Source of the DNA: Candidatus Latescibacterota bacterium
GTDB lineage: Bacteria; Latescibacterota; UBA2968; GCA-2709665
Assembly (NCBI GenBank): GCA_963662665.2
Contig: CAXXJS010000030.1
Coordinates: 74,008 to 138,007 of the forward strand
Direction of reading: 5' to 3'
DNA length: 64,000 bases
Shown here: positions 2,008 through 14,746 of the stretch, one piece after another
Layout: every line of letters begins with the position of its first letter
Numbering within the stretch: position 1 is the first letter of the stretch
Made by a program: the position numbers and the translations under genes
Notes under the pieces: generated by a model
What the model was told of the DNA's origin: nothing
Database searches by the model: none
Seen by the model: the letters and a program-made list of their open reading frames with translations, nothing else

Positions 2008-3279
2008 TTAAGCGGATTCTGAGGAATTGATTGAGATCTGTCCGTTCACGGCAGCCGCGATAAGGGCAGAGCGGCGCTCCTTGAGGAGTGAAATGGTGCG
2101 TTCTGTAGATTTGCGGACGCTATCGATTTCGGCAGTGTGACGAGCGATGTGGTCAACGACGCGCTTCTGCTCTTGATCGGGTGGTGTGAGGAGCGGCATC
2201 TCACTCAGGTTCGATGCTGAAATCGACGCCAAATTAGTAGACTGCTTAGCGCGGCTTTCAAAATACGCCTTGGCTACTTCACTTGTAGTATAGGTGTTAA
2301 GCCAGTCAGGCGATACCCGCCGTGGTCGCACTGCGAATACGTGGTTTTGATGTAAGCAAGGGTTGATCTGACCAGTCCAGATTGCTCCGCGCCCCAGCTT
2401 GTCCGCGTCTCCGCCTTCATTCATTAAAACGTCTCCGGCCCGAAGGTGGCACAGAGAGGCCTCTTTGTTCGGCACGGAAATAGACTTCACTTCGGTAAGA
2501 TCAAAGTAGCCATCTTGAACATTCGCAACCCGCAGATAGGGAAACTCCCTCGTCGACTTGTTTCCAAAGCTTTTGCCCAAGGCAATCCCGGTCTGGACGG
2601 ACGCTACGAATTTGAGACGAGTCACCTTCCAATGCGCCGGGATCTTGCCTAGCCAAGAGATGCCCGAGTGGCGGAACGGGACGTTCGGGTCGAGACCACG
2701 GGTCACGGCGCGGGTGATGAGCGCACGGCGCTTCTCGGCAACCAGGTCCAGCAGCCGTACGTTCTCCTTTACAAGCTCATCCAGCCTCGATGTCTCGTGG
2801 TCGAGATAGTCGGCGATGGCGCGTTGCTGATTCGGACCCGGGATCTGAATACGTAGATTAGCAAGGAACTCTCCGTTCACATGCGGAATACCCATTCCAA
2901 CTGTCTCGGCTTTAATCGTATCTTCCTGTGATTTACATGCCCAAAACAAAAACCTCGGATCAACAAATTTAGGAATGACGAGCGCGGCTGTCGATGAGAC
3001 AATACCCCGCTTAGCCCTTAGAAATTCCCCCGCATTTGATCCATCCCACAAGAGTAAGGTGTCGTTTTCGGAAGCCACAAGGGCATTGGGACCGAGACTG
3101 ACGAGCGTCGGGTCATTAATCTCTCCGCGAAGAAACTCCATCGTGAGATAAGGTGCGACTTCGACATTGAGACCTGCCTGATCAACTGAAGTTGGTAAGT
3201 TTCCTTTGTGGACATCGGCCAGGTATCGAAATCGAACTTCCTTCCACATTTCCGTGGCTGTTTTCGTAGCGGCGTTCAC
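2008..3279 (-). CDS. hsdS: Type I restriction-modification specificity subunit
   Basis: Two TRDs with conserved helical spacers (PGPNQQRAIADYLD...EKRRALITRAVTRGL; PPDQEQ...ERRSALIAAAVNGQ). Likely GTG start at 3279 overlapping the hsdM stop (GTGA). Confidence 0.9.
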   Translation of the reverse strand: MNAATKTATEMWKEVRFRYLADVHKGNLPTSVDQAGLNVEVAPYLTMEFLRGEINDPTLVSLGPNALVASENDTLLLWDGSNAGEFLRAKRGIVSSTAALVIPKFVDPRFLFWACKSQEDTIKAETVGMGIPHVNGEFLANLRIQIPGPNQQRAIADYLDHETSRLDELVKENVRLLDLVAEKRRALITRAVTRGLDPNVPFRHSGISWLGKIPAHWKVTRLKFVASVQTGIALGKSFGNKSTREFPYLRVANVQDGYFDLTEVKSISVPNKEASLCHLRAGDVLMNEGGDADKLGRGAIWTGQINPCLHQNHVFAVRPRRVSPDWLNTYTTSEVAKAYFESRAKQSTNLASISASNLSEMPLLTPPDQEQKRVVDHIARHTAEIDSVRKSTERTISLLKERRSALIAAAVNGQISINSSESA

Positions 3280-5261
3280 GCCGTCACCTCGCGAAGCAAT
3301 CGGATGATCTTCTCTTCCGCCTTCTTCAGGTCCGCGTCGATTTCCTCCAGCGGTCGGGGTGGCGTGCATTTGTAGAAGTGCCGATTGAAGTTGATCTCGT
3401 AGCCGACCTTGTCCTTTCCGCGGTCCATCCAGGCGTCGGGGACGTGAGGGCGGACCTCACGTTCGAAGTAGGCGTCGACGTCGTCTTTAAGCGGCACATT
3501 CTCGAAATCGCGTAGCGCGGTGTCAGGCTCGTATCCTTTCTCTCGGCCATCCTTCCTGACGGGCTCGCCGTCTGGATCTTTCACGGTGAAGACGTCTCGG
3601 AAGAGCCTCTGTTCTACCTTCTTCCAGCGCGATTGGCGCTTATGCAGGAGAGCGCTGATATTTTCCCAGGTCGCGTTCCAGTCGCGCTGGGGCTCGCGCC
3701 CGAACACCTTATCTATGTCCTGGACGTCATCCAGCAAGTACGGACATGCATCCAGGAAACGCGCTTTGTCTTCAAAGGTCATCTGATAACGCAGGCGCAG
3801 AGGGCGCTCCACGGTGACACGGGAATAGCCGAAGTCATCGTTGTCGAAAATCTTTGAACGCTCGTCCTCCTGGAAGCGGCCATACAGTTGCACGATCTCC
3901 TCAACATGCTCTGCGGTTAAATGCCGGCGCTTGTCGCCCAGACTTCGCCTGTTGTCTTCGCTACCGCCCGCCATCCACATATCGCGGGCGTCGACCAGCT
4001 GAATCCGTCCTTTCCGGTGATCTTTTTTGCGGTTGGTGACAATCCAGATATACGTGGCGATGCCTGTATTGTAGAACATCTGCTCTGGTAAGGCAATGAT
4101 GGCTTCGAGCCAATCGTTTTCGATAATCCACTTGCGAATGTCGCTCTCGCCGGAACCGGCGCCGCCGGTGAAAAGCGGGGAACCACTGAACACAATGGCC
4201 AGACGCGAGCCGTGCTGGTGCTTTGCCGGCTGAACTGGTTCAAACTTATGTACCATGTGCTGCAGGAATAACATAGATCCATCGTTTACGCGGGGGAGTC
4301 CTGCGCCGAAACGGCCCGCGAAACCAAGCTTTTCGTGCTCATTGCGGACGTCGTTGCGTTGTTTTTTCCAGTCCACGCCGAAGGGGGGATTGGTAAGAAA
4401 ATAATCAAAGGTGTCGTCCTCGAATTGGTCCTCTGTAAGGCTGTCGCCGTATCGGACACTATCACCGACACCAATGTGGTCGACCTGCTTCATCAGCATG
4501 TCTGAGGCAGCAGTGGCAAAGGCGCGCTGGTTATAGTCCTGTCCATAAACGAAAAGACGCGCAACATTGTTATGCTCTCGCAGGTAGTTCTGCGCTTCGG
4601 CCAACATGCCACCGGTTCCGCAAGCGGGATCGAGAAGCTTGCGCACTGCACCGGGCGTAGCGAGGAGCTCATCGTCGCTAATGAATAGGATGTTTACCAT
4701 CAGCCGGATGACGTCCCGTGGCGTGAAGTGGTCGCCCGCGGTCTCGTTGGCCAATTCATTGAATCGACGAATCAGATTCTCGAAAATAAGTCCCATCTGG
4801 TCGTTTGGGACACGCTCCGGATGGAGATCCACGTCGCAGAACTTCGAGACAACGAGATAGAGGATGTTGGACTCCTGCATTTTCCCGATTTCTGTCTCAA
4901 ATTCGAAGTATTCGAAGATTTCGCGAACGTTCTTTGAAAAGCCATGGATGTAGCTGACAAGGTGTTGGGCGACGTGGTCCGGATCGCCTTTGAGCTTATC
5001 GAAGTCGAGGGGTGAGTGGTTATGGAAACGCTGGTCAGCAGCGCTGTTCAACTTGCGTTCGAGCGCACGACCTTCAAACTTGCCTCGGGAGCGTTCGTAC
5101 TCAGCAAGCACGCTGGACTTGGTCGGTGAGAGCACGCAGTCAAATCGTCGAAGTACGGTCATGGGCAACATCACACGTTCGTACTGTGGAGGACGGTACG
5201 GCCCACGTAGCAAGTCGGCGATTTGCCAGATCAGATTCGCGAAGTAGCTGTGGTCAGGCAT
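3276..5261 (-). CDS. hsdM: Type I restriction-modification methyltransferase subunit
   Basis: IWQIADLLRG, GDHFTPRDV, DPACGTGGML, NPPF catalytic motif, GYEINFNRHFY. Confidence 0.95.
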   Translation of the reverse strand: MPDHSYFANLIWQIADLLRGPYRPPQYERVMLPMTVLRRFDCVLSPTKSSVLAEYERSRGKFEGRALERKLNSAADQRFHNHSPLDFDKLKGDPDHVAQHLVSYIHGFSKNVREIFEYFEFETEIGKMQESNILYLVVSKFCDVDLHPERVPNDQMGLIFENLIRRFNELANETAGDHFTPRDVIRLMVNILFISDDELLATPGAVRKLLDPACGTGGMLAEAQNYLREHNNVARLFVYGQDYNQRAFATAASDMLMKQVDHIGVGDSVRYGDSLTEDQFEDDTFDYFLTNPPFGVDWKKQRNDVRNEHEKLGFAGRFGAGLPRVNDGSMLFLQHMVHKFEPVQPAKHQHGSRLAIVFSGSPLFTGGAGSGESDIRKWIIENDWLEAIIALPEQMFYNTGIATYIWIVTNRKKDHRKGRIQLVDARDMWMAGGSEDNRRSLGDKRRHLTAEHVEEIVQLYGRFQEDERSKIFDNDDFGYSRVTVERPLRLRYQMTFEDKARFLDACPYLLDDVQDIDKVFGREPQRDWNATWENISALLHKRQSRWKKVEQRLFRDVFTVKDPDGEPVRKDGREKGYEPDTALRDFENVPLKDDVDAYFEREVRPHVPDAWMDRGKDKVGYEINFNRHFYKCTPPRPLEEIDADLKKAEEKIIRLLREVTA

Positions 5262-5450: not shown

Positions 5451-5562
5451 GCCAATTTCTTGGGTAGCCAAGTCGTAATCGTCCGTGTGGGCCACTTGAC
5501 GGATCTCCAATAGAGTTCGGTCTCAGTCTATTGAAGTAAATGGGACGAATACGTCAACCCAT

Positions 5563-6861
5563 TCATAAACCTATCTTCAAGCCTGCCGCAGTTGCTTTCT
5601 TTACCGCAGAGCAGAACCTCTCGTAATCCCGTAGGGTTATCGGCCTATAGTGTGCCACTGCATTGCGGAGTTGTCGCGATTGACGCACCAGTGGAAGCCA
5701 TCGCTGTTCCACCTGTATATTGGGACACTTCTGCAGCAGATATTCCAGGTGTCCCCATTGACAGGCAAAGGGCGTCTCTCTCACTTCCTGGCATTCTATT
5801 ACTGTATCCGGCTCCTGCCATTTGTAAGGCCAATTCAATCCGTACGAGTGGTTAAGGTGGGTACATAAGCCCAATCGAATTTCGTCAATTTCCGCCAAAA
5901 GAAACCCTGCTTGTCCTCGCCACAATCGATGATCCAACGTTTCCCTTTGATCCAATAGAGCCAAGACTGCACTATGGCGTTCCAGCCCATATTCCGGCGT
6001 CCAATGAACCATTCCCCGAGCCCAAATCTTATACAATGTATTTGGTAACGCCCAATCCTCTTGCCAAAGTGTGGAATTTCGGGGATGGCTATGTAGAGGC
6101 CAATACTCCAATTCCGTTTGATCCCAGCCACGTCTCTGACCATAGGCCCGCAGTAGGTCCGCTAGTTCGGCGTTATCGCGATATTCCTGAGACCAAAGAA
6201 AATCCGCCAATCCTATATCAGAGCCCGCAATGGCTGGAATAGTGTGCTCTTTCCATCGGCTTGAGGGACCAGTATCCTGTTCGGATGCCAGTCGACACAA
6301 GAGTCGCATCTCCAATGTCGTGGGGATGCCTTTCCAAGGACGGATAGACAGGAATACATTCGTTTGGGGAAGCAGGCACGTCACTTGCGACGCTTGCGTT
6401 AGCAAACACAATGCCGGGGGGGTCTCTGAGCCACCTTCAGCGGTGGAGTCCCTACCTTGACATACCTGAGCCCACTGCACCATGAAATTTAGCCAATGCT
6501 CTCGATCTTCTTCAGTCAATTCATCGAAACCATCGAGAAACAAAATCTCAGGTAAGTCTGCTTGATTCAGGAGATTCTCTACTGTACGAGGCGCGTTGGA
6601 GGTACCCCAATCGACTTCGAGAATCAGACCTAATGCTCCAGCTGGCGTTTGGGCATCCAATTGGGATATCAAAACATCATGGATTTGTAACTGCCATTGT
6701 CCGAGTCCATCCCATAATTCAGATCGGAGCAGGCTTGATTCCACGCCTTCGGGAAACAAGGCCAAAACACTGCGGCCGTTCCGCAAGTCGTCCAGTATCA
6801 GGTCTAGCAAACGCCGAGCAGTTGGCATCTGCATTACGAATCTGGTCAGTTCCAAGCTCAT
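5563..6861 (-). CDS. Hypothetical protein with a possible degenerate P-loop N-terminal domain and a C-terminal HEPN-like motif
   Basis: 432-aa ORF with ATGA overlap with the upstream ATPase gene. Walker B-like ILFLDGFDE but no GKS/T. C-terminal RQLRNAVAH matches RxxxxH. Confidence 0.6.
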   Translation of the reverse strand: MSLELTRFVMQMPTARRLLDLILDDLRNGRSVLALFPEGVESSLLRSELWDGLGQWQLQIHDVLISQLDAQTPAGALGLILEVDWGTSNAPRTVENLLNQADLPEILFLDGFDELTEEDREHWLNFMVQWAQVCQGRDSTAEGGSETPPALCLLTQASQVTCLLPQTNVFLSIRPWKGIPTTLEMRLLCRLASEQDTGPSSRWKEHTIPAIAGSDIGLADFLWSQEYRDNAELADLLRAYGQRRGWDQTELEYWPLHSHPRNSTLWQEDWALPNTLYKIWARGMVHWTPEYGLERHSAVLALLDQRETLDHRLWRGQAGFLLAEIDEIRLGLCTHLNHSYGLNWPYKWQEPDTVIECQEVRETPFACQWGHLEYLLQKCPNIQVEQRWLPLVRQSRQLRNAVAHYRPITLRDYERFCSAVKKATAAGLKIGL

Positions 6862-9538
6862 AGATGTCCGATTATTCGGCCCAGGACTGGTTCAACACGG
6901 CACTCTCCATTTCTTATATCTAGGCAACCCAACCGACTCAAGAACTCCACAACCGACATACAGTCCTCGTGGGAAAGGTCGGGTGTTCCTTCAACCAAAT
7001 CGCGCAATGTATCTAAATCTTCGTACGAGAATCTTCCAAATTCCACTAAAGTCCGTAACACCGGTAACGACTCATCCTGAGAAACCAATCCAGTCTGCTG
7101 TAACAATTCGTCACCTAACTCTGATGAGGGACGGTCCAAATCCTCGATTAATGCGTTTGCGAACGAGCGGGGATCGTCATGGTCTTGGCACCGACGCAAA
7201 AGATCATCCAGCAAGAAAGACCATCCGCCGGTGGCTTTCATCACCATCTGGTAGACCTCGGGCGAATCTAGCTTACCCGCCTGGCTTAGTCGCTGTCTTA
7301 TCCCCACTTCGTCCCAGCGGCGGAGGTAGATGGGGTCAACCTTATCTTCCAGACCGGTTCGCCGGTCAGGGGGCACCTTTAGCCACGTCCAAGCAGCCTC
7401 TGGCTTAAGCAGAAAAACCACCTGAAGAGGCCGTCTACGCCTCTGGTTAAAGTCTCTGCACATTTCAGATACGTTCCAAACGCATCGCGCCATTTCCCCA
7501 CCGGTTCCGCGAAGCCGGCCATAGGTTAATGATTGCTCGACCCCTCGTTGCTTTCGGGCGTGGGAATTCAACCAGGCACAGGTTCTGTCGGCTTGGATCA
7601 ATTCTTGGGCAGGGATCTTAATGCCTCCCATACGGATTAAAGCGCGGTCCAACACGTCAAACCCTAATGCTTGCGAGCCGAAGACTAAACTCACGCCGGA
7701 CCGCCCTGTTTGTTGCAGACGGCCTTCCTCCACCAGCGTCAACGGACTGTATCTTCGGCCTCGGTCGTCTAATAGTCGGTGATGACTATCAGGTTGAAAC
7801 TGAGTCGGCTTAGGTTTATCCAATAGCTCCAGCAGTCGGTCTTCGATGTCCTCCTCGGTACCCATGAGACGGACTAAATTGGGACTGCGTAGCAAGTATT
7901 GATTTTCATCCAAGTTGTGTACCAATATGCCCAAGCCGACCATTTCTCCCAGCAATCCCCTCAATGCTTCAGTGTCGACCTGATCGAAACCCTGAGGCCA
8001 CCATTCTCGCGCCAGGCGGAGAAGCTCGTTCACACTGAATGAACGGACATAGCTGTCTCGTTTCTCTTTTTGCACATAAATCATGGCCCACGCGATGCAC
8101 TGATACCGTGAATCCAGTGCCAGAGTCCAATCGAGCCTTTCCCGAATGACCTGTCGAGCTTGAGACGATCGATATACCGCTTCGACATCCTCCGATAGTA
8201 TCTTGTAAGGCGGTCCAGTTGTGGACCTTTTGGCTTGCAGCCGACGTACGAGTTCATGACAGAAATACTGTATTAGACCCGGATGGTAGTTGGTGTATGA
8301 AAGGACTTTGAGCACCGTGGTCTCATCAACGAACCGATATCCCAGCGTTTCCAATGGCTCTCGAACCAATTGCCGGGCAGACGGGGCTTCGAGTGGTCCC
8401 ACTAGCAAGTTTTCCCCAAAATGCGCCAGCGGCTGGTTGGGGATATCGTTGAACCGCTGCACGTTATGTAGACCGGCAAAGACCACCTTGAAACGGGATT
8501 GCGTATTCTGCATAAGGGATCTGAGTCTTTCGACGACTTGAAAGCTATTCTGAGCATCTGCACCCAATAAGGAATCGGCTTCATCAAACAGGACGAGAAC
8601 ACGCCGTTGCGGAGATTCATCCATTGCGTTCTGCATGTGTTTGATGATATTGTCAGGCTGGTTCGCCGTTATGCTGTCCCTAATAAGTGAGTGTTTCTTA
8701 AAGCCATCGCGCAACTTGATCCATAACTGGTCGGGCTGTTCGCCCGCCAGGGCATCCCCCAATAGCTTGATGTCCTCGACCCAAGCAAATCGCTCCTGAT
8801 CTGGCTGGTGAAATGTGCGCTCCACTTGGCGCAATAGAGCGGACTTGCCCAACTGTCTCCCACCGAATACGATGCAGCTACCGGCGTTTTGTAGCTGACG
8901 GACCATCCTGTCGCGGCCGTAGTACATTTCGGGCGGTACATTTCCGGCCTGGAACGGTGTATAGGGATTGAGAGCAGCGTAGGGTAAGCTACAACGCAGG
9001 AATGCTGGAAGGCGGGTATCGTCAAACTTGGCCAAAAATACAAGTAGGACTTCATCTAGAACAACGAGAGCCAATTCCCGTTCTCCAGCGCGGGTGGCTA
9101 TGTCGCGTCGCCGCCGCTCAGTTAATCGCCCGAGAAAAAAGACGATGACCGTCTTGGTATCCAGTCCTATGTCACGCAAGAACGCTCCGATCGAGGCCGC
9201 CCCGGGCCGTTCCCACAGACATACTACATTGTAGCAGCCATTGGCTTGCGAGCCCAACTGAGGGATCGGTCGTGCGAGATCGCTGGCCGACGCATCTACC
9301 TCGCAGTGGAGCCAATCCCGGCCGCGACTCTTCACACTGACGGTCGACGCATTCCCCGGTAGATGAAAACCAAGATATGCCAACAAGACCGGGACATGCC
9401 GATCGGCAACTGTTGGTTGGTCCTGATGGCGTTTGAGTAGGTGCCAGGATTTAAGTGCCCTAGCGGCTTCATCTCGGCGGGTTTTGGGTAACTCACCGAA
9501 CGCCACCTTACCCCAAGTTTTGCCTTTCTCAATCACAC
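6858..9538 (-). pseudogene. 3' part of an IS630-interrupted giant STAND-type P-loop NTPase
   Basis: LNPY...MYYGR, Walker A GGRQLGKS, Walker B LVLFDEAD, VVFAG, TNYHPGLIQ. A second degenerate module follows (SLVFGSQALG...ATGGWSFLL). In frame with 10765-13382 after IS removal. Confidence 0.8.
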
Positions 9539-9540
9539 TA

Positions 9541-10762
9541 GTACCTATTGACTTCTAAGACTGGGCGTGCTTATAGTTCGATGTCTCCCCTGAAGACGAA
9601 GGAGCCATCGGCATGCCGAAGAAATACGTCGTACGTCTGAGTCCCGAAGAACGGGAACGGCTGCAGGATCTGGTAAGCAAAGGCAAGACGCAAGCGTACC
9701 GAATCAGGCACGCGCATGTGCTTCTCAAGGCCGATGCAGAGGGTCCGGCCTGGCTGGATCGGCAGATCACGGAGGCCTTTTCGTGCAATCGGTCTACGGT
9801 TGAGGGCATCCGGAAGCGTTTTGTGTTGGAGGGCCTGGATTCGGCCCTTGAGCGAAAGAAGCGCGCCCATCCTCCCACCGAAAGAAAGCTGGATGGTGCT
9901 AAGGAAGCCCGATTGATCGCGTTGGCTTGCAGTGAACCTCCAACGGGACGTAAGCGGTGGACGCTGAAGCTTTTGGCCGATGAGCTCGTAGCCCTGGAGA
10001 TCGTCGATAGCATCTCATACCGGACGGTGCAGCGAACGCTTAAAAAAACAAACTTAGGCCTCACCTGAGAACGTGCTGGGTGATTCCGCCCAAGCAAAAC
10101 GCCGCGTTTGTCGCCGCGATGGAGGATATCCTGGATGTCTATCAGCGGCCGTACGACGCCCTGAGGCCCGTTGTCAATATGGACGAACACCCGGTTCAGT
10201 TGGTCAAGGAGACGCGTGTTCCGGTCACTACACGTCCGGGCAAACCTGAACGCTACGACTACGAGTATGAACGTAACGGAACCGCCGTGAACTTCATGTT
10301 CACTGAACCGCTTTCGTGCTGGCGCAAGGTCCGTGTAAGACAACGCAAGACCGCACTGGACTGGGCCCAGGAGATCAAGGAGCTTCTGGATACGGACTAC
10401 CGTGAAGCCGAAACCGTCGTCCTGGTGTGTGATAACCTCAACACGCACACGCCCGCGGCACTCTACGAGGCGTTCTCACCCGAAGAAGCTCGCCGTCTGG
10501 CCAGGCGTCTCGAAATCCACTACACGCCCAAACACGGGAGTTGGCTCAACATCGCCGAGATCGAACTGAGTGTCTTGAGCAACCAATGCTTGAAGCAGCG
10601 CATCCCCGATATCGATTCACTCAAAGAGCAGACTTCCGCTTGGACGAATGATCGCAACAACAATAGCAAGGCCGTCCATTGGCGGTTCACGACCGACGAT
10701 GCTCGCATCAAACTGAGAAAGCTGTATCCAGACTACGCCGTGCTTTAGCCGTCAAAGGGTAC
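9541..10762 (+). mobile_element. IS630-family insertion sequence (1222 bp)
   Basis: Imperfect TIRs GTACCTATTGAC / GTCAAAGGGTAC. TA target duplication at 9539-9540 and 10763-10764. Confidence 0.92.
9613..10748 (+). CDS. IS630 transposase expressed via a -1 frameshift (HTH ORF 9613-10068, DDE ORF ending 10748)
   Basis: A7C slippery run at 10042-10049; the -1 frame gives LKKNKLRPHLRTCWVIPP. DDE motifs MDE, CDNLNTH, TPKHGSWLNIAEIE. Confidence 0.9.
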
Positions 10763-10764
10763 TA

Positions 10765-13382
10765 GCCAATTGATTGACATTCCCCAAACTAGTAAGCCCC
10801 GATTCGATAACAGGACTAGCAACTTGGAACTCCGTTAAGATGTCACGCTCGTACGGTGGGGCAAACCACGCGCTCTCCCATTCTCTCTCGCCTTGGAGGA
10901 CTTCGCGTAGGTGGGCTAAGCCTTCGTCTACGACTCTGGTGTCGCTCTGTTGAAAAGCTTTATCGAAAAATACCTCTACGGTTCTTAGCTGCTCAACTTG
11001 GATCTTTTGCTCTAGCACTTGCCGAATTTGTGCCCATTGACTCTCCAACTCTTGCAATCGGTCTGCGCGCTTTTGTTTCAATTGCTTCTCAATATCATCT
11101 AGCCGTCGGAACAGGGGCCCAAAGCGCAAGGGCTCTTCAATAGCCGCCGTTTCCATCGCGGCACTCATATTGGTACGTTCTTTTTCAACCAGCAGCCCGT
11201 CCACCATACCCTGTTCAATTTCGCTCCGCACTTTGGCGACCCCTTCCAATAAAGCCGTCCGGGATCCTTTGAGAGACTCTTCGTTTCGATCCACAAATAA
11301 CCTGCGCTCCTCGTCGTCCTTTAACGCGCTCTGTAATACATCGGTGAAGCGAAAATCCTGTCCTTCAATACGCATGCTACAGGCCGTACTTAATTCACGT
11401 TCCTCAGCCAAAGATTGGCGCAAGAACGTGGCGATCTCGGCTTTATTATCCTCTCCAGGATAGCCGTCGTCGTCAAGGGACACTTCAGGGAGCCATAATA
11501 GGCGTCGTGCCAACGCCTGCTGCAACGAGATGCTCTCTCGCCGCATCCACATGTGGGGTTCTTTCATATTTGATTGTTCCTCTAACCCTAACATACCTAC
11601 TACCTGGTCAAAAGCCCGACGAAGAACATAACCACAGGCGGCTTCCGGCTGGGCTTGATCATCTCGTTGCATTAGGTCCAGTTCGGATTTGATTTCCGGC
11701 CGGACGGTGTGTATATGATCATGCAACTCCTTCACTTGATCCGTCCACCAGTCACCCTTGTTTCTAACGAACTCTTGCTGCTCAATTAAGGAACACCAGT
11801 TGTCCGCCAATGTTACTGCTTCTTCGACACTTCGTACTAATTGATCTCGGAAAACCCCGGACAGTGGCTTGGACGGTCGAGAAGATGCCAACTCTTGGTC
11901 GATCTGGTGGATGCGGTCTACAATCTGGGCTCGCCTTTGGAAACGCAAAATGCGCTCCCGGACCTGAACTATTTGATCTACTTGGTTATCCTTTACGGGA
12001 GTGAGAATGAAACTTAAATCGCCCTCTCGCTCAACTAGATACCGCAATATGTGAGTCGCCCTCGGGATTATCAGTCTCCGGTTTTGATTATTTTCCAAGA
12101 GCCGGCCAGCGTCTTTTGCAGTCCCGTCGATTTTTTCATTGATAATTGCCTGGTTCTCGACTCCTCGTAGATCGTCGTTTCGGAGAGGAAAGCCCGCTCT
12201 GGCAAAAACCCGGATAGCGTCGGAGAGTGCACCAAAGGCGGGATTGACTTCATCTCTTTGAGGAAGCCACCCGACGAGCCCGGCATGCGGGGCAATCAAG
12301 CTGGGACGAAGTGCCGCAGCCAATCCCAGTAGTTTTTCCGTAGTAGTTTGAGGTGCCCAATCCGAAGCAATTTCCAAAATGTCGCGGACTAAACTGTCAG
12401 CATCGTCTTCCAACCAACGTGAACCCTGAAGCACGGTGAGCAGTTCAGGCGCAACAGGTACGTCACGACCGGATGCTCTTAGAGAACGAACCAGCCAATA
12501 AGCTCCGGCCGAATCACCTTCAGCTAATAGGCTCCAACTCAATGATTCCCAGTTTTCATCGGAGTCGTCTTTTTGTAAAAGTGCCGCTACATCCTGAACG
12601 GAGCGCAACGTTGGTGGCTTTTTTTCGGGGGGCTGGGGTGCGGACGTGGTCGGCTGGGTAGGCTTTGGTTCGGACTCTTCTCGCTTGTCTAAACGTTCGG
12701 CTTCGTCCTTTTGCCCTGTGGAACTGGTTTCCCTCTTGGATTCTTCTTCGGATGGATGAGTTTCTTTTTTTTCCTCAAGCTGTTCGTCAGAATCTGGGCG
12801 GTCGCCAGAAGTACCTTTTCCGGGCTTAGGGGGTTCCGTGCCGGGGTCGTCGTCGTCTTCAACTTCCTCATCTTGAGTCTGTTCCGGCTCCGGTTTGGTC
12901 GCCGCAAACCCCTGGTCGAGTTGCTTCGCCAGTGAATTTATCCGATCTTCCGTGTCGTTCAAGTCCGTCCGATGCTTGCGGGTTTCCTGGAAGTTTTCAG
13001 GCGATTGCTGCTTTAACAAGCGAAGCCCATTTAACTGCTCCAGCAGACTTCCCACCGTTTTCGCACGCTCCGAAACTTCGTCAGTAGGGCAATCAGCCGC
13101 AAGCCAGTTGGCTATGTCCAAGTTCTCGAATTCAAAAAACACGATCTCGCTGGCGTAGTCCGCTCGCAATTGGTCCAACGCCCGTTGAAGATGCATGCGT
13201 CCGGCCTTCTTCCGCTCGTCGGACTTCCGATCAGCAATGAGCCGTACCTGTTCGACGAATCCGCTGACCTGATCTGATTCCCATTCCGAAGCATCGGAAG
13301 GCCACTCTCGCAGTTCCTCAATAACATTGGCCCATCGCGTAACCTTCAGGCTCTCGTCATTGTGAATTTTGGCATCTCCCAT
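10765..13382 (-). pseudogene. 5' part (874 aa; helical with an acidic/Pro-rich linker) of the IS630-interrupted giant NTPase
   Basis: ORF runs into the IS end (...NQLAS|TL*). Removing the IS restores ...NQLASVIEKGKTW... Confidence 0.8.
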
Positions 13383-13447: not shown

Positions 13448-14746
13448 TCAATCCGCGGGGACCATTTCGGGGGCTTTGCGCGCGAAGGTATCGATGGGCG
13501 GGAGGTTGCGGTCCGGGCCGAGTTCGAGCTGGCGTGGGCCGACCAGGATGTCCAGGTTGTCGCGCGTTTCGGCCATGTCCAGGTAGGCGGTGGAGGCTTC
13601 GACTTCACCCAGGTCCAGCGTATTCCTGATCCAGAGCACTTTGGCGTCGCACGGCTCGATGAGTCCGATGGATTCCAATCCGATCTGCAGGGCGTCCTCG
13701 TCGGTGGGAAAGTGCATGGGGATGGAGGCGGCGGGTGGATGCTGCCCGGTAATGGCGTTGATGTTCGTCGCGTAATGGTCGATTTTCTCGACCAGCCGGT
13801 CCGTGGTGAATTCGGCCATACCCACGCCCACGGCGTTGCCGTGGGTTTTTTCCGTGAGATCCCGAACGAAGATCCGCAGCACGCGAGGCGTGTCGCCGTC
13901 CATCGCACGGCGTTCGTTGCGCTTGCGCCCCACCACGTTGGTATCGATTCCGGAGCCGCTGATATCTTTACCCATTTCATCGATAATCAGCAGGTCCACG
14001 TCGTCGAACGGCAGCCGGGGGCACCAGGCCTTGGCCTTGACCAGAAGTTCCTTCTCCGCGCTTTCGAAATCCCGCGCGGGAACCGCGGCAATTTGCGCGG
14101 TTTCGTCGTAGCCGTTTTCAAGCAGGGCAATACCGAACGAAATCGGCATCTTTTCCCGGACCGTCTTTCCTACAACGCGCACGATCTTGTCGAAAGAGTG
14201 GTGGATTATGGCCCGGTGGTAAATCGTTGCGCCCTTGTGCTTTCCCAGGCCGATGAGCATCATCTTCATCAGTCCGCTTTCGATTTCACCCACGAAGCCG
14301 GTGTGGGGTTTTACGCGGTTGACAACGACCACGTGGTCGGCCTCGGAGGCGCATTTGTCGAAATAGACCGGCATACCGAAATCGGTGACGCCAATTTCAA
14401 TCACGTCCATGGAGGACCTGACGGGGGCGCCAACCGCTGCTTCGGTAATGCCGTAATCGGCGAGGATCCCGGCCTGACCCTCCGCCGTGCCTCCGCCGTG
14501 GCTGCCCATTGCGGGAACGATAAAGGGCCTGGCGCCCAGCCCCACCATTTCGCTGACAATTGTCGCGATGACCGTGTCCAGGTTGGCGATGCCCCGTGAC
14601 CCTGCGGCGATTGCTACGGTGTGTCCGGGCTTGATGGTTTCACCTGGGTTGAGGTTCCGGATTTCGCGCCGCGTGGCGCCCGGAATATCGTCTACGCGCG
14701 GCGCGTCGAAATGTTGGCGAATCCGAAACATGCTGGGGTATTGCAT
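13448..14746 (-). CDS. LarA/DUF2088-like (lactate racemase superfamily) protein
   Basis: GSRGIAN, PAMGSHGGGT, NRVKPHT, ESGLMKM.IGLGKH, MGKDISGSG. Confidence 0.7.
   Translation of the reverse strand: MQYPSMFRIRQHFDAPRVDDIPGATRREIRNLNPGETIKPGHTVAIAAGSRGIANLDTVIATIVSEMVGLGARPFIVPAMGSHGGGTAEGQAGILADYGITEAAVGAPVRSSMDVIEIGVTDFGMPVYFDKCASEADHVVVVNRVKPHTGFVGEIESGLMKMMLIGLGKHKGATIYHRAIIHHSFDKIVRVVGKTVREKMPISFGIALLENGYDETAQIAAVPARDFESAEKELLVKAKAWCPRLPFDDVDLLIIDEMGKDISGSGIDTNVVGRKRNERRAMDGDTPRVLRIFVRDLTEKTHGNAVGVGMAEFTTDRLVEKIDHYATNINAITGQHPPAASIPMHFPTDEDALQIGLESIGLIEPCDAKVLWIRNTLDLGEVEASTAYLDMAETRDNLDILVGPRQLELGPDRNLPPIDTFARKAPEMVPAD

Follow-up and report, generated by a model that had tools for sequence, protein, structure and literature searches.

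Layout of the locus and the interrupted large gene

The window analysed here is a stretch of 64,000 nucleotides from the genome of a Candidatus Latescibacterota bacterium (assembly GCA_963662665.2, contig CAXXJS010000030.1, positions 74,008 to 138,007). Between window positions 5563 and 13382 it contains two adjacent genes on the minus strand. The first encodes a large protein with STAND-type ATPase modules, and the second encodes a smaller partner protein. The large gene is present as two open reading frames (ORFs). The 5' part (ORF 10752-13382, minus strand) encodes 876 residues. Its genuine coding sequence stops at 10763, and the final codons and the stop are derived from an insertion sequence (IS). 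The 3' part (ORF 6858-9536, minus strand) encodes 892 residues. The partner gene (ORF 5563-6861, minus strand) encodes 432 residues, and its start overlaps the stop of the large gene in an ATGA at 6858-6861.

The inserted element occupies 9541-10762 and is oriented on the plus strand. It contains orfA (9613-10068, a helix-turn-helix protein) and orfB (10080-10748, DDE_3), which match HTH_32 (E 1e-17) and DDE_3 (E 2.4e-22), respectively. Its ends form imperfect terminal inverted repeats. Because of these ORFs and repeats, the element is assigned to the IS630 family. Its target is CTAG, of which the TA is duplicated. The original prediction held that removing the element and one TA fuses the two ORFs. 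Excision of 9541-10762 (1222 bp) plus one TA indeed gives a frame of 1766 residues with no internal stop, and the excision junction, NQLAS/VIEKGK, is identical to that in an intact 1763-residue orthologue from the same genus (L015). Alternative boundaries at 9544-10759 give 1768 residues and a mismatch to this orthologue, and were rejected.

Four full-length copies of the IS are found in the genome at about 100% identity, the others being on contigs C5, C10 and C40. In four of four public sequencing runs, from two studies, contigs enter the IS ends from both flanks and none spans the element; these contigs leave room for a rare IS-free allele. The near-identical copies and the run contigs together indicate that the insertion is real and recent, and that the interrupted form is the one those samples show. 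The read depth of the IS is 4-7 times that of its flanks in the four runs. With the large gene divided between two ORFs, the switch of the large protein is most likely dead in the window copy. The partner gene is still intact.

Of the 13 phylum genomes with the pair, three show visible damage to it, the IS-broken window copy included. In the second (G129; L019, ~5520-5565) the large gene has a frameshift, for which an assembly error could account. In the third (G144; L025, ~7085-7111 and 9211-10329) the large gene has an in-frame stop, and the partner is interrupted by a 372-residue ORF with a Cys-rich N-terminus.

Three STAND-fold modules in two proteins

The AlphaFold model of the 892-residue part (predicted local distance difference test score, pLDDT, 79.8) contains three regions. 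Residues 1-186 form an alpha/beta domain that precedes the ATPase (8979-9540, minus strand). Residues ~206-574 form an ATPase domain with helical and winged-helix domains, the nucleotide-binding fold of an active STAND/ORC-Cdc6-like NTPase (7812-8978, minus strand). A second module of like build is seen at residues 588-892; we assign it to residues 586-892 (6861-7781, minus strand). The motifs quoted in the original prediction are all present, as is the ATGA overlap. In the 892-residue part these are NPYTPF at residue 190, YYGR at 205, GGRQLGKS at 225, DEAD at 318, TNYHP at 415, SLVFGSQALG at 616 and TGGWSFLL at 769.

The Walker A motif GGRQLGKS (8841-8864, minus strand) and the Walker B motif DEAD (8574-8585, minus strand) are invariant in 32 of 32 aligned relatives, which bears out the earlier claim of an intact STAND-like ATPase in the large protein. 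The second module is without the Walker A lysine and keeps TGGW(S/P)xLL. In its C-terminal part the large protein therefore has an active STAND/ORC-like ATPase module first and a degenerate module after it.

The best Pfam match of the active module is AAA_22 (E 1.1e-10), which we take to be a transposase-type ATPase family. A transposition-linked role of this AAA_22-like ATPase was considered and rejected, as no conserved transposase is found beside the pair. The 892-residue part also matches nSTAND1 (PF20703) just above the cut-off (30.3 bits versus 27.1, E 4.3e-7). This match is absent from those of the intact orthologue at E 0.01, and is precomputed for nine of 120 listed relatives.

Relatives of the large protein measure 1573-3003 residues at full length. 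Among 8000 proteins scored, 2001 were found at E <= 0.001, and the best 120 of these 2001 are 43-88% identical to the 892-residue part. Conservation among 31 full-length relatives is uneven along the protein. It is highest at positions 951-1500 (0.62-0.82), which cover the alpha/beta domain and the active module, and is 0.4-0.55 at positions ~1-950, the N-terminal region. That region, about 870 residues, is helical and includes a variable linker rich in E, P, K and D at residues ~150-260; the corresponding variable stretch in the conservation profile is at ~150-250. The N-terminal 876 residues match no Pfam, PADLOC or NCBIfam family and have no sequence relative in the PDB, and a PDB search with the profile of the large protein gave a single chance match (E 0.62). 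Across 32 relatives, the invariant columns of the alpha/beta domain contain no acidic/lysine triad of the PD-(D/E)xK kind. TPR-type repeats were not detected in either protein of the pair.

The model of the partner is confident (pLDDT 88.4; predicted template modelling score, pTM, 0.86) and indicates two parts. Residues 1-296 form the N-terminal module (5974-6861, minus strand). By fold, residues 1-307 match STAND and ORC-type proteins in Foldseek and VIA-align searches, in which the ATPase domain filled the matches. The nucleotide-binding motifs are eroded. The Walker A site reads LFPEGVES, and only 31 of 98 sequences retain the Walker B-like Asp110, which lies in ILFLDGFDE at residue 106. 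Among the same 98 sequences, no position in residues 1-300 has Arg or Lys at >=80%. In the N-terminal half of the partner we recognise a dead STAND module in which no arginine finger is conserved, in line with the degenerate P-loop that had been proposed for it. Across the pair there are three STAND-fold modules, and only one of them has invariant Walker A and B motifs. The fold with eroded Walker A and B is found both in residues 586-892 of the large-gene part and in residues 1-296 of the partner. When the partner and the large protein were compared profile to profile, no relationship emerged (probability 0.3%), so homology of the partner module to the second module of the large protein is not established. 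A prediction of the complex between residues 186-892 of the large-gene part and residues 5-297 of the partner scored 0.00; it was run with no controls and speaks neither for nor against binding.

The C-terminal part of the partner (residues 297-432; 5563-5973, minus strand) is an all-helical domain and a candidate Swt1-like HEPN RNase. The model is helical over the whole of residues 297-425, with pLDDT above 90. The domain carries LRNAVAH at residue 398, and the RNAVAH is encoded at 5650-5667. All 98 of 98 partner sequences have R399 and H404, which are also the sole invariant columns among 61 sequences that range down to 16% identity. They also hold in 55 of 55 C-domains, forms from viral contigs included. 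R399 is followed by N400 in 88 of the 98 sequences. The C-domain thus has the Rx4-6H motif with a polar residue after the Arg that marks HEPN domains. In a Pfam scan of 61 partner members, HEPN_Swt1 (PF18731) was matched weakly in seven at E <=0.05 (best 1.7e-4), and the sole other family found repeatedly was a DUF, in three members. Searches in a protein atlas also lead to Swt1-like HEPN clusters; the scores are weak and serve as leads only. The partner family is large, with 2551 clusters at 50% identity at E <=0.001 and 809 at 1e-30. The best 150 of the 2551 clusters measure 343-460 residues, nearly all of them ~405-445.

Distribution and genomic setting

In the phylum, 13 of 168 genomes hold the pair; within the genus it is found in two of 14 other genomes. 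The partner is directly downstream in 12 of 12 phylum loci, where the large gene is either a single frame or visibly broken. A set of loci from many phyla was drawn from at least 563 stretches of species-representative genomes that encode relatives of the large protein. The best 80 were used, and nine of these end too soon downstream for the partner to be seen. The set includes Latescibacterota, Chloroflexota, Acidobacteriota, Bacillota, Myxococcota, Actinomycetota, Pseudomonadota, Planctomycetota and others. The partner is directly downstream in 64 of the 71 loci with room for it (L069 counted by hand). Fifty-nine of the 64 partners are full length, and five are divergent, frameshifted or interrupted. 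The exact 4-nucleotide overlap is found in 28 pairs. On five IMG/VR contigs classed as viral (L111-L115) the partner is downstream in all five, and the large protein is a distant relative (24-29% identity). These partners are shorter (332-363 residues) and keep RNxLAH or RNxLSH; the 4-nucleotide overlap is visible in four. The co-occurrence of the two genes on which the original prediction depended is therefore found in the phylum, across phyla and on viral contigs. The pair is conserved as a unit across many phyla and is translationally coupled. Its ATPase half is 43-49% identical across phyla.

Seven of the 71 loci are exceptions. Transposases are found downstream in L064, two BrxC/D-like ATPases in L085, and a PIN protein with an SNF2-NOV_C helicase in L086; L082, L102 and L103 were not resolved. 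In L101 (12562-17348, from Acidimicrobiia) the partner is replaced by an overlapping 810-residue metallo-beta-lactamase/beta-CASP/RMMBL protein, and this nuclease is followed by a 784-residue protein with a DrmE_C-like domain. Such an exchange, with a beta-CASP nuclease in the partner's place, fits an effector position. No third conserved gene was found beside the pair in the 80 loci. An unannotated protein cluster with a median length of ~1144 residues occurs near the pair in seven of the 80 (L045, L048, L052 and four others).

Directly downstream of the pair in the window, as the original prediction noted, are restriction-modification genes, all on the minus strand: HsdM (3276-5261; N6_Mtase, E 1.2e-56), HsdS (2008-3369; Methylase_S, E 1.7e-18) and a C5 DNA methylase (412-1557; E 1.1e-54). 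The site of the pair in the genus is bounded by a nickel-pincer isomerase gene, which 15 of 15 genomes have, and by a core flank ~28 kb away. The interval in the window genome reads, in order, the pair; HsdM, HsdS and the C5 methylase; a 991-residue GHKL/HEF_HK protein; Response_reg_2; DUF6575; and a 1178-residue HsdR. The island runs past the window start, with HsdR last. Its G+C content is 0.48-0.56, compared with 0.58-0.63 beyond. The 991-residue protein has HATPase_c_3, HEF_HK and HATPase_c domains, and the C-terminus of HsdR is Peptidase_S24-like (L110 4247-14418; G000:C30:60000-74500). The genes between HsdS and HsdR look like a two-component-like module nested in a type I restriction-modification system.

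Ten sister loci without the pair (L116-L125) lie beside the orthologue of window positions 13448-14746. Eight of them carry an unrelated 1753-residue double helicase (DEAD/Helicase_C plus UvrD), which is split into three ORFs in one of the eight. Two sister genomes have type I genes without the pair, and others add AAA_21, DUF4062 or a 2071-residue LRR protein. The differing cargo indicates that the site is a variable hotspot and that the pair and the restriction genes can be separated. Functional coupling of the pair to the adjacent HsdM and HsdS was rejected, because the arrangement is shared by two same-genus loci only and type I genes occur without the pair.

Among 116 nearest neighbours at ~35 diverse loci, the most recurrent are helicases, restriction and modification enzymes, HerA, SNF2, NACHT and PDDEXK_9. 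BrxL, type ISP and DarT are single neighbours, and BrxC/D-like ATPases, PIN, SNF2-NOV_C and Eco57I are found elsewhere. A PADLOC scan of 78 neighbours gave mostly cross-matches of ABC transporters (mad3, AriA), which were not used as evidence. Strong single neighbour matches were to PtuA (E 4.7e-112) and to a type II enzyme (E 3.9e-104).

Proposed function and relation to known systems

We propose that the pair is probably a self-contained two-gene conflict or defence module, directed against phages or mobile elements, with a HEPN RNase as its effector. The defence function is inferred. Its patchy holders, lower G+C, variable hotspot and repeated decay mark the pair as accessory and count for a conflict module. 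In the mechanism that we envisage, the large protein would detect a cue from the invader, through either its N-terminal 870 residues or the conserved alpha/beta domain. Binding of ATP by the single active module would then cause the large and small subunits to assemble via their STAND modules. Assembly would unite two partner C-domains, as HEPN RNases need, and so create a composite Rx4-6H active site. Cleavage of RNA would arrest the infected cell. A more specific arrangement can be imagined, in which the three STAND modules over two proteins would, once ATP is bound, build an ORC-like pseudo-hexamer of two large and two small subunits with six modules in all, two Swt1-like HEPN domains would be joined and their RNase activated, and the conserved helical N-terminus would be a sensor unlike those of Avs or NLR proteins. 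We regard this arrangement as doubtful.

Several observations weigh against a defence module with a HEPN effector. In one clade of the phylum, ABC-transporter genes rather than defence genes flank the pair. Each defence-type neighbour family occurs just 1-4 times among the 116 neighbours, amid many housekeeping genes. Because the comparison has no background control, these neighbours suggest, but do not show, an enrichment of defence genes around the pair. The uniformity of partner length and of ATPase-half identity is unusual for an immune system. For the window partner, Pfam gives no family up to E 10, and PADLOC and NCBIfam give none at permissive thresholds. The original prediction took RxxxxH as a HEPN catalytic motif. 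The invariance of the motif, the all-helical C-domain and the weak HEPN_Swt1 matches uphold this; a match to a solved HEPN fold was not obtained for the C-domain, the fold searches having reached residues 1-307 only. Sequence-profile searches of the PDB gave no match for the whole partner, and for the C-domain only chance matches to fluorescent proteins (E 1.2-1.6). The literature searched yielded no bench test and no name for the pair or for any family member.

The closest published design is that of Kaur, Iyer, Burroughs and Aravind (2021, eLife 10:e70394; PMC8195603), whose passages on the subject predict, in silico, a mobile operon of two genes whose products both have nSTAND2 modules. One of the two is inactive and fused to a GT4 or HEPN domain, and both are given an arginine finger (PMC8195603). 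The claim that the design matches no recognised system thus does not hold, as precedents are found in this paper and in Anantharaman et al. 2013 (PMC3710099). As outlined there, the nSTAND2 system and the pair have in common a mobile two-gene operon with an active STAND protein and an eroded STAND protein fused to an effector, often HEPN; both are predictions only.

It is possible, though unlikely, that the pair is simply a member of this nSTAND2 counter-invader system. The outline in the text of PMC8195603 fits, being that of a mobile two-gene operon with two STAND proteins of which one is eroded and fused to HEPN, and the AAA_22 match of the active module would fit a basal STAND. The pair indeed combines an active STAND protein with an inactive STAND-effector, but only the HEPN-like form and one beta-CASP replacement were found. 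No GT4 partner is present in any examined locus of the window family. In the inactive module of the partner family no Arg or Lys is conserved at >=80%, in contrast to the arginine finger that the passages on nSTAND2 give to both proteins. The large protein here adds a second degenerate STAND module and ~1060 residues before the ATPase. The Pfam nSTAND2 model (PF20702) misses the window family, with no matches at E 1 in the genome of the window and none at E 0.001 in five of five other genomes with relatives of the large gene. In the Pfam copy behind our searches nSTAND1 is PF20703 and nSTAND2 is PF20702; one later paper reverses the two accessions in the part concerned (PMC13449251). Weak nSTAND2 matches in Myxococcales (two of 151 genomes) provided no usable example of the published system, and hidden Markov models of the window family gave no matches at E 10 in three loci with such matches. 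The two families are set apart here by the text of the paper and by the Pfam model.

Fusions of HEPN domains to ATPases are a second precedent. Anantharaman et al. 2013 list Swt1-family HEPN domains fused to STAND and DUF499 ATPases (PMC3710099). The theme of HEPN with AAA+ or STAND and the HEPN_Swt1 lead are common to the pair and to these Swt1/Abi2-family fusions (DUF499/Hma; STAND-TPR-S1). In the fusions as listed there, HEPN is N-terminal to an active ATPase in one polypeptide; in the pair it is C-terminal to an inactive module, on a separate partner.

The pair also differs from the better known STAND and ORC-like systems. In Avs proteins one polypeptide carries both the effector, at its N-terminus, and a repeat sensor, at its C-terminus. 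The fold is common to the pair and to Avs/AVAST proteins (Avs3, 8dgc; Avs5, 9jap), but the layout is different: in the pair the effector follows a dead STAND module on a protein of its own, the STAND modules number three, and TPR-type repeats were not detected. None of the three ORFs of the pair matches the PADLOC Avs models at E 1. The relevant part of a 2026 BREX survey describes BrxC together with an inactive STAND protein, BrxB (PMC12839542). Unlike BREX, with its ORC/Cdc6-like BrxC and BrxB, the pair has no PglZ, PglX or other BREX gene conserved beside it, its effector is a HEPN-like domain, and it matches the PADLOC BrxC model at E 0.028 only. Other PADLOC and NCBIfam matches of the pair are likewise at the level of the P-loop (mad8, E 0.03; PDC-S01, E 0.038; Sll1717, E 0.0019; DS41_1, E 0.074). 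RNase L and Ire1 have a KEN-type HEPN RNase that is silent until a nucleotide-binding module unites two copies. They are a working analogy only, being eukaryotic, driven by a kinase or pseudokinase and without STAND modules. PADLOC, NCBIfam and Pfam models do not name the pair. The design has a published precedent, and the family with the unusual three-module build is large and unnamed in these three collections.

Two further explanations concern the role of the pair in the cell. It might be a selfish addiction module resembling a toxin-antitoxin system, in which a HEPN toxin is restrained by the large ATPase and acts in post-segregational killing. Tight linkage and translational coupling, the patchy distribution with a hotspot site, and the pairs on predicted viral contigs would all agree with this, and HEPN toxins are described as common in toxin-antitoxin pairs in the relevant part of PMC3710099. 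However, a 1766-residue ATPase of three domains would be a very costly antitoxin, and the invariant Walker A and B motifs suggest a regulated switch. A broken large gene beside an intact partner, as seen in four of four runs, would be lethal were the large protein nothing but an antitoxin, unless the fragments still work. We therefore consider addiction improbable. A housekeeping or regulatory machine that handles RNA in environmental bacteria with complex lifestyles seems highly improbable. High conservation, uniform architecture, the stable synteny of the transporter flanks in one clade and the size of the family (2551 clusters at 50% identity) would be expected of such a machine. Set against these are its presence in just 13 of 168 phylum genomes and two of 14 other genus genomes, the variable hotspot, the repeated inactivation, the exchange of the partner for another nuclease type in L101 and the distant pairs on viral contigs.

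Least probable of all is that the C-domain is not a nuclease but an RNA- or nucleotide-binding sensor, with the output elsewhere, for example in the alpha/beta domain: some HEPN domains are non-catalytic binders and eukaryotic Swt1 is inferred to be inactive, according to the passages of PMC3710099 on these families, and the alpha/beta domain belongs to the best conserved stretches of the large protein, but inactive HEPN domains lose Rx4-6H, whose R and H are here the sole invariant partner residues, the alpha/beta domain has no invariant PD-(D/E)xK-type triad, and the single clear replacement of the partner is from another RNA-nuclease family.

The window copy itself matters less, as an example of a gene recently inactivated by an IS. 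Should the pair prove to be an immune system, it would rank among the larger families that defence catalogues do not yet include. The family spans soil, sediment and multicellular-type bacteria, which are poorly covered by bench screens. If the proposed mechanism is true, the pair would be a tractable case of dead STAND modules used as adaptors. It would also show how an ORC-like ATPase may gate a HEPN RNase, a question common to BREX (BrxC/BrxB) and eukaryotic NLRs.

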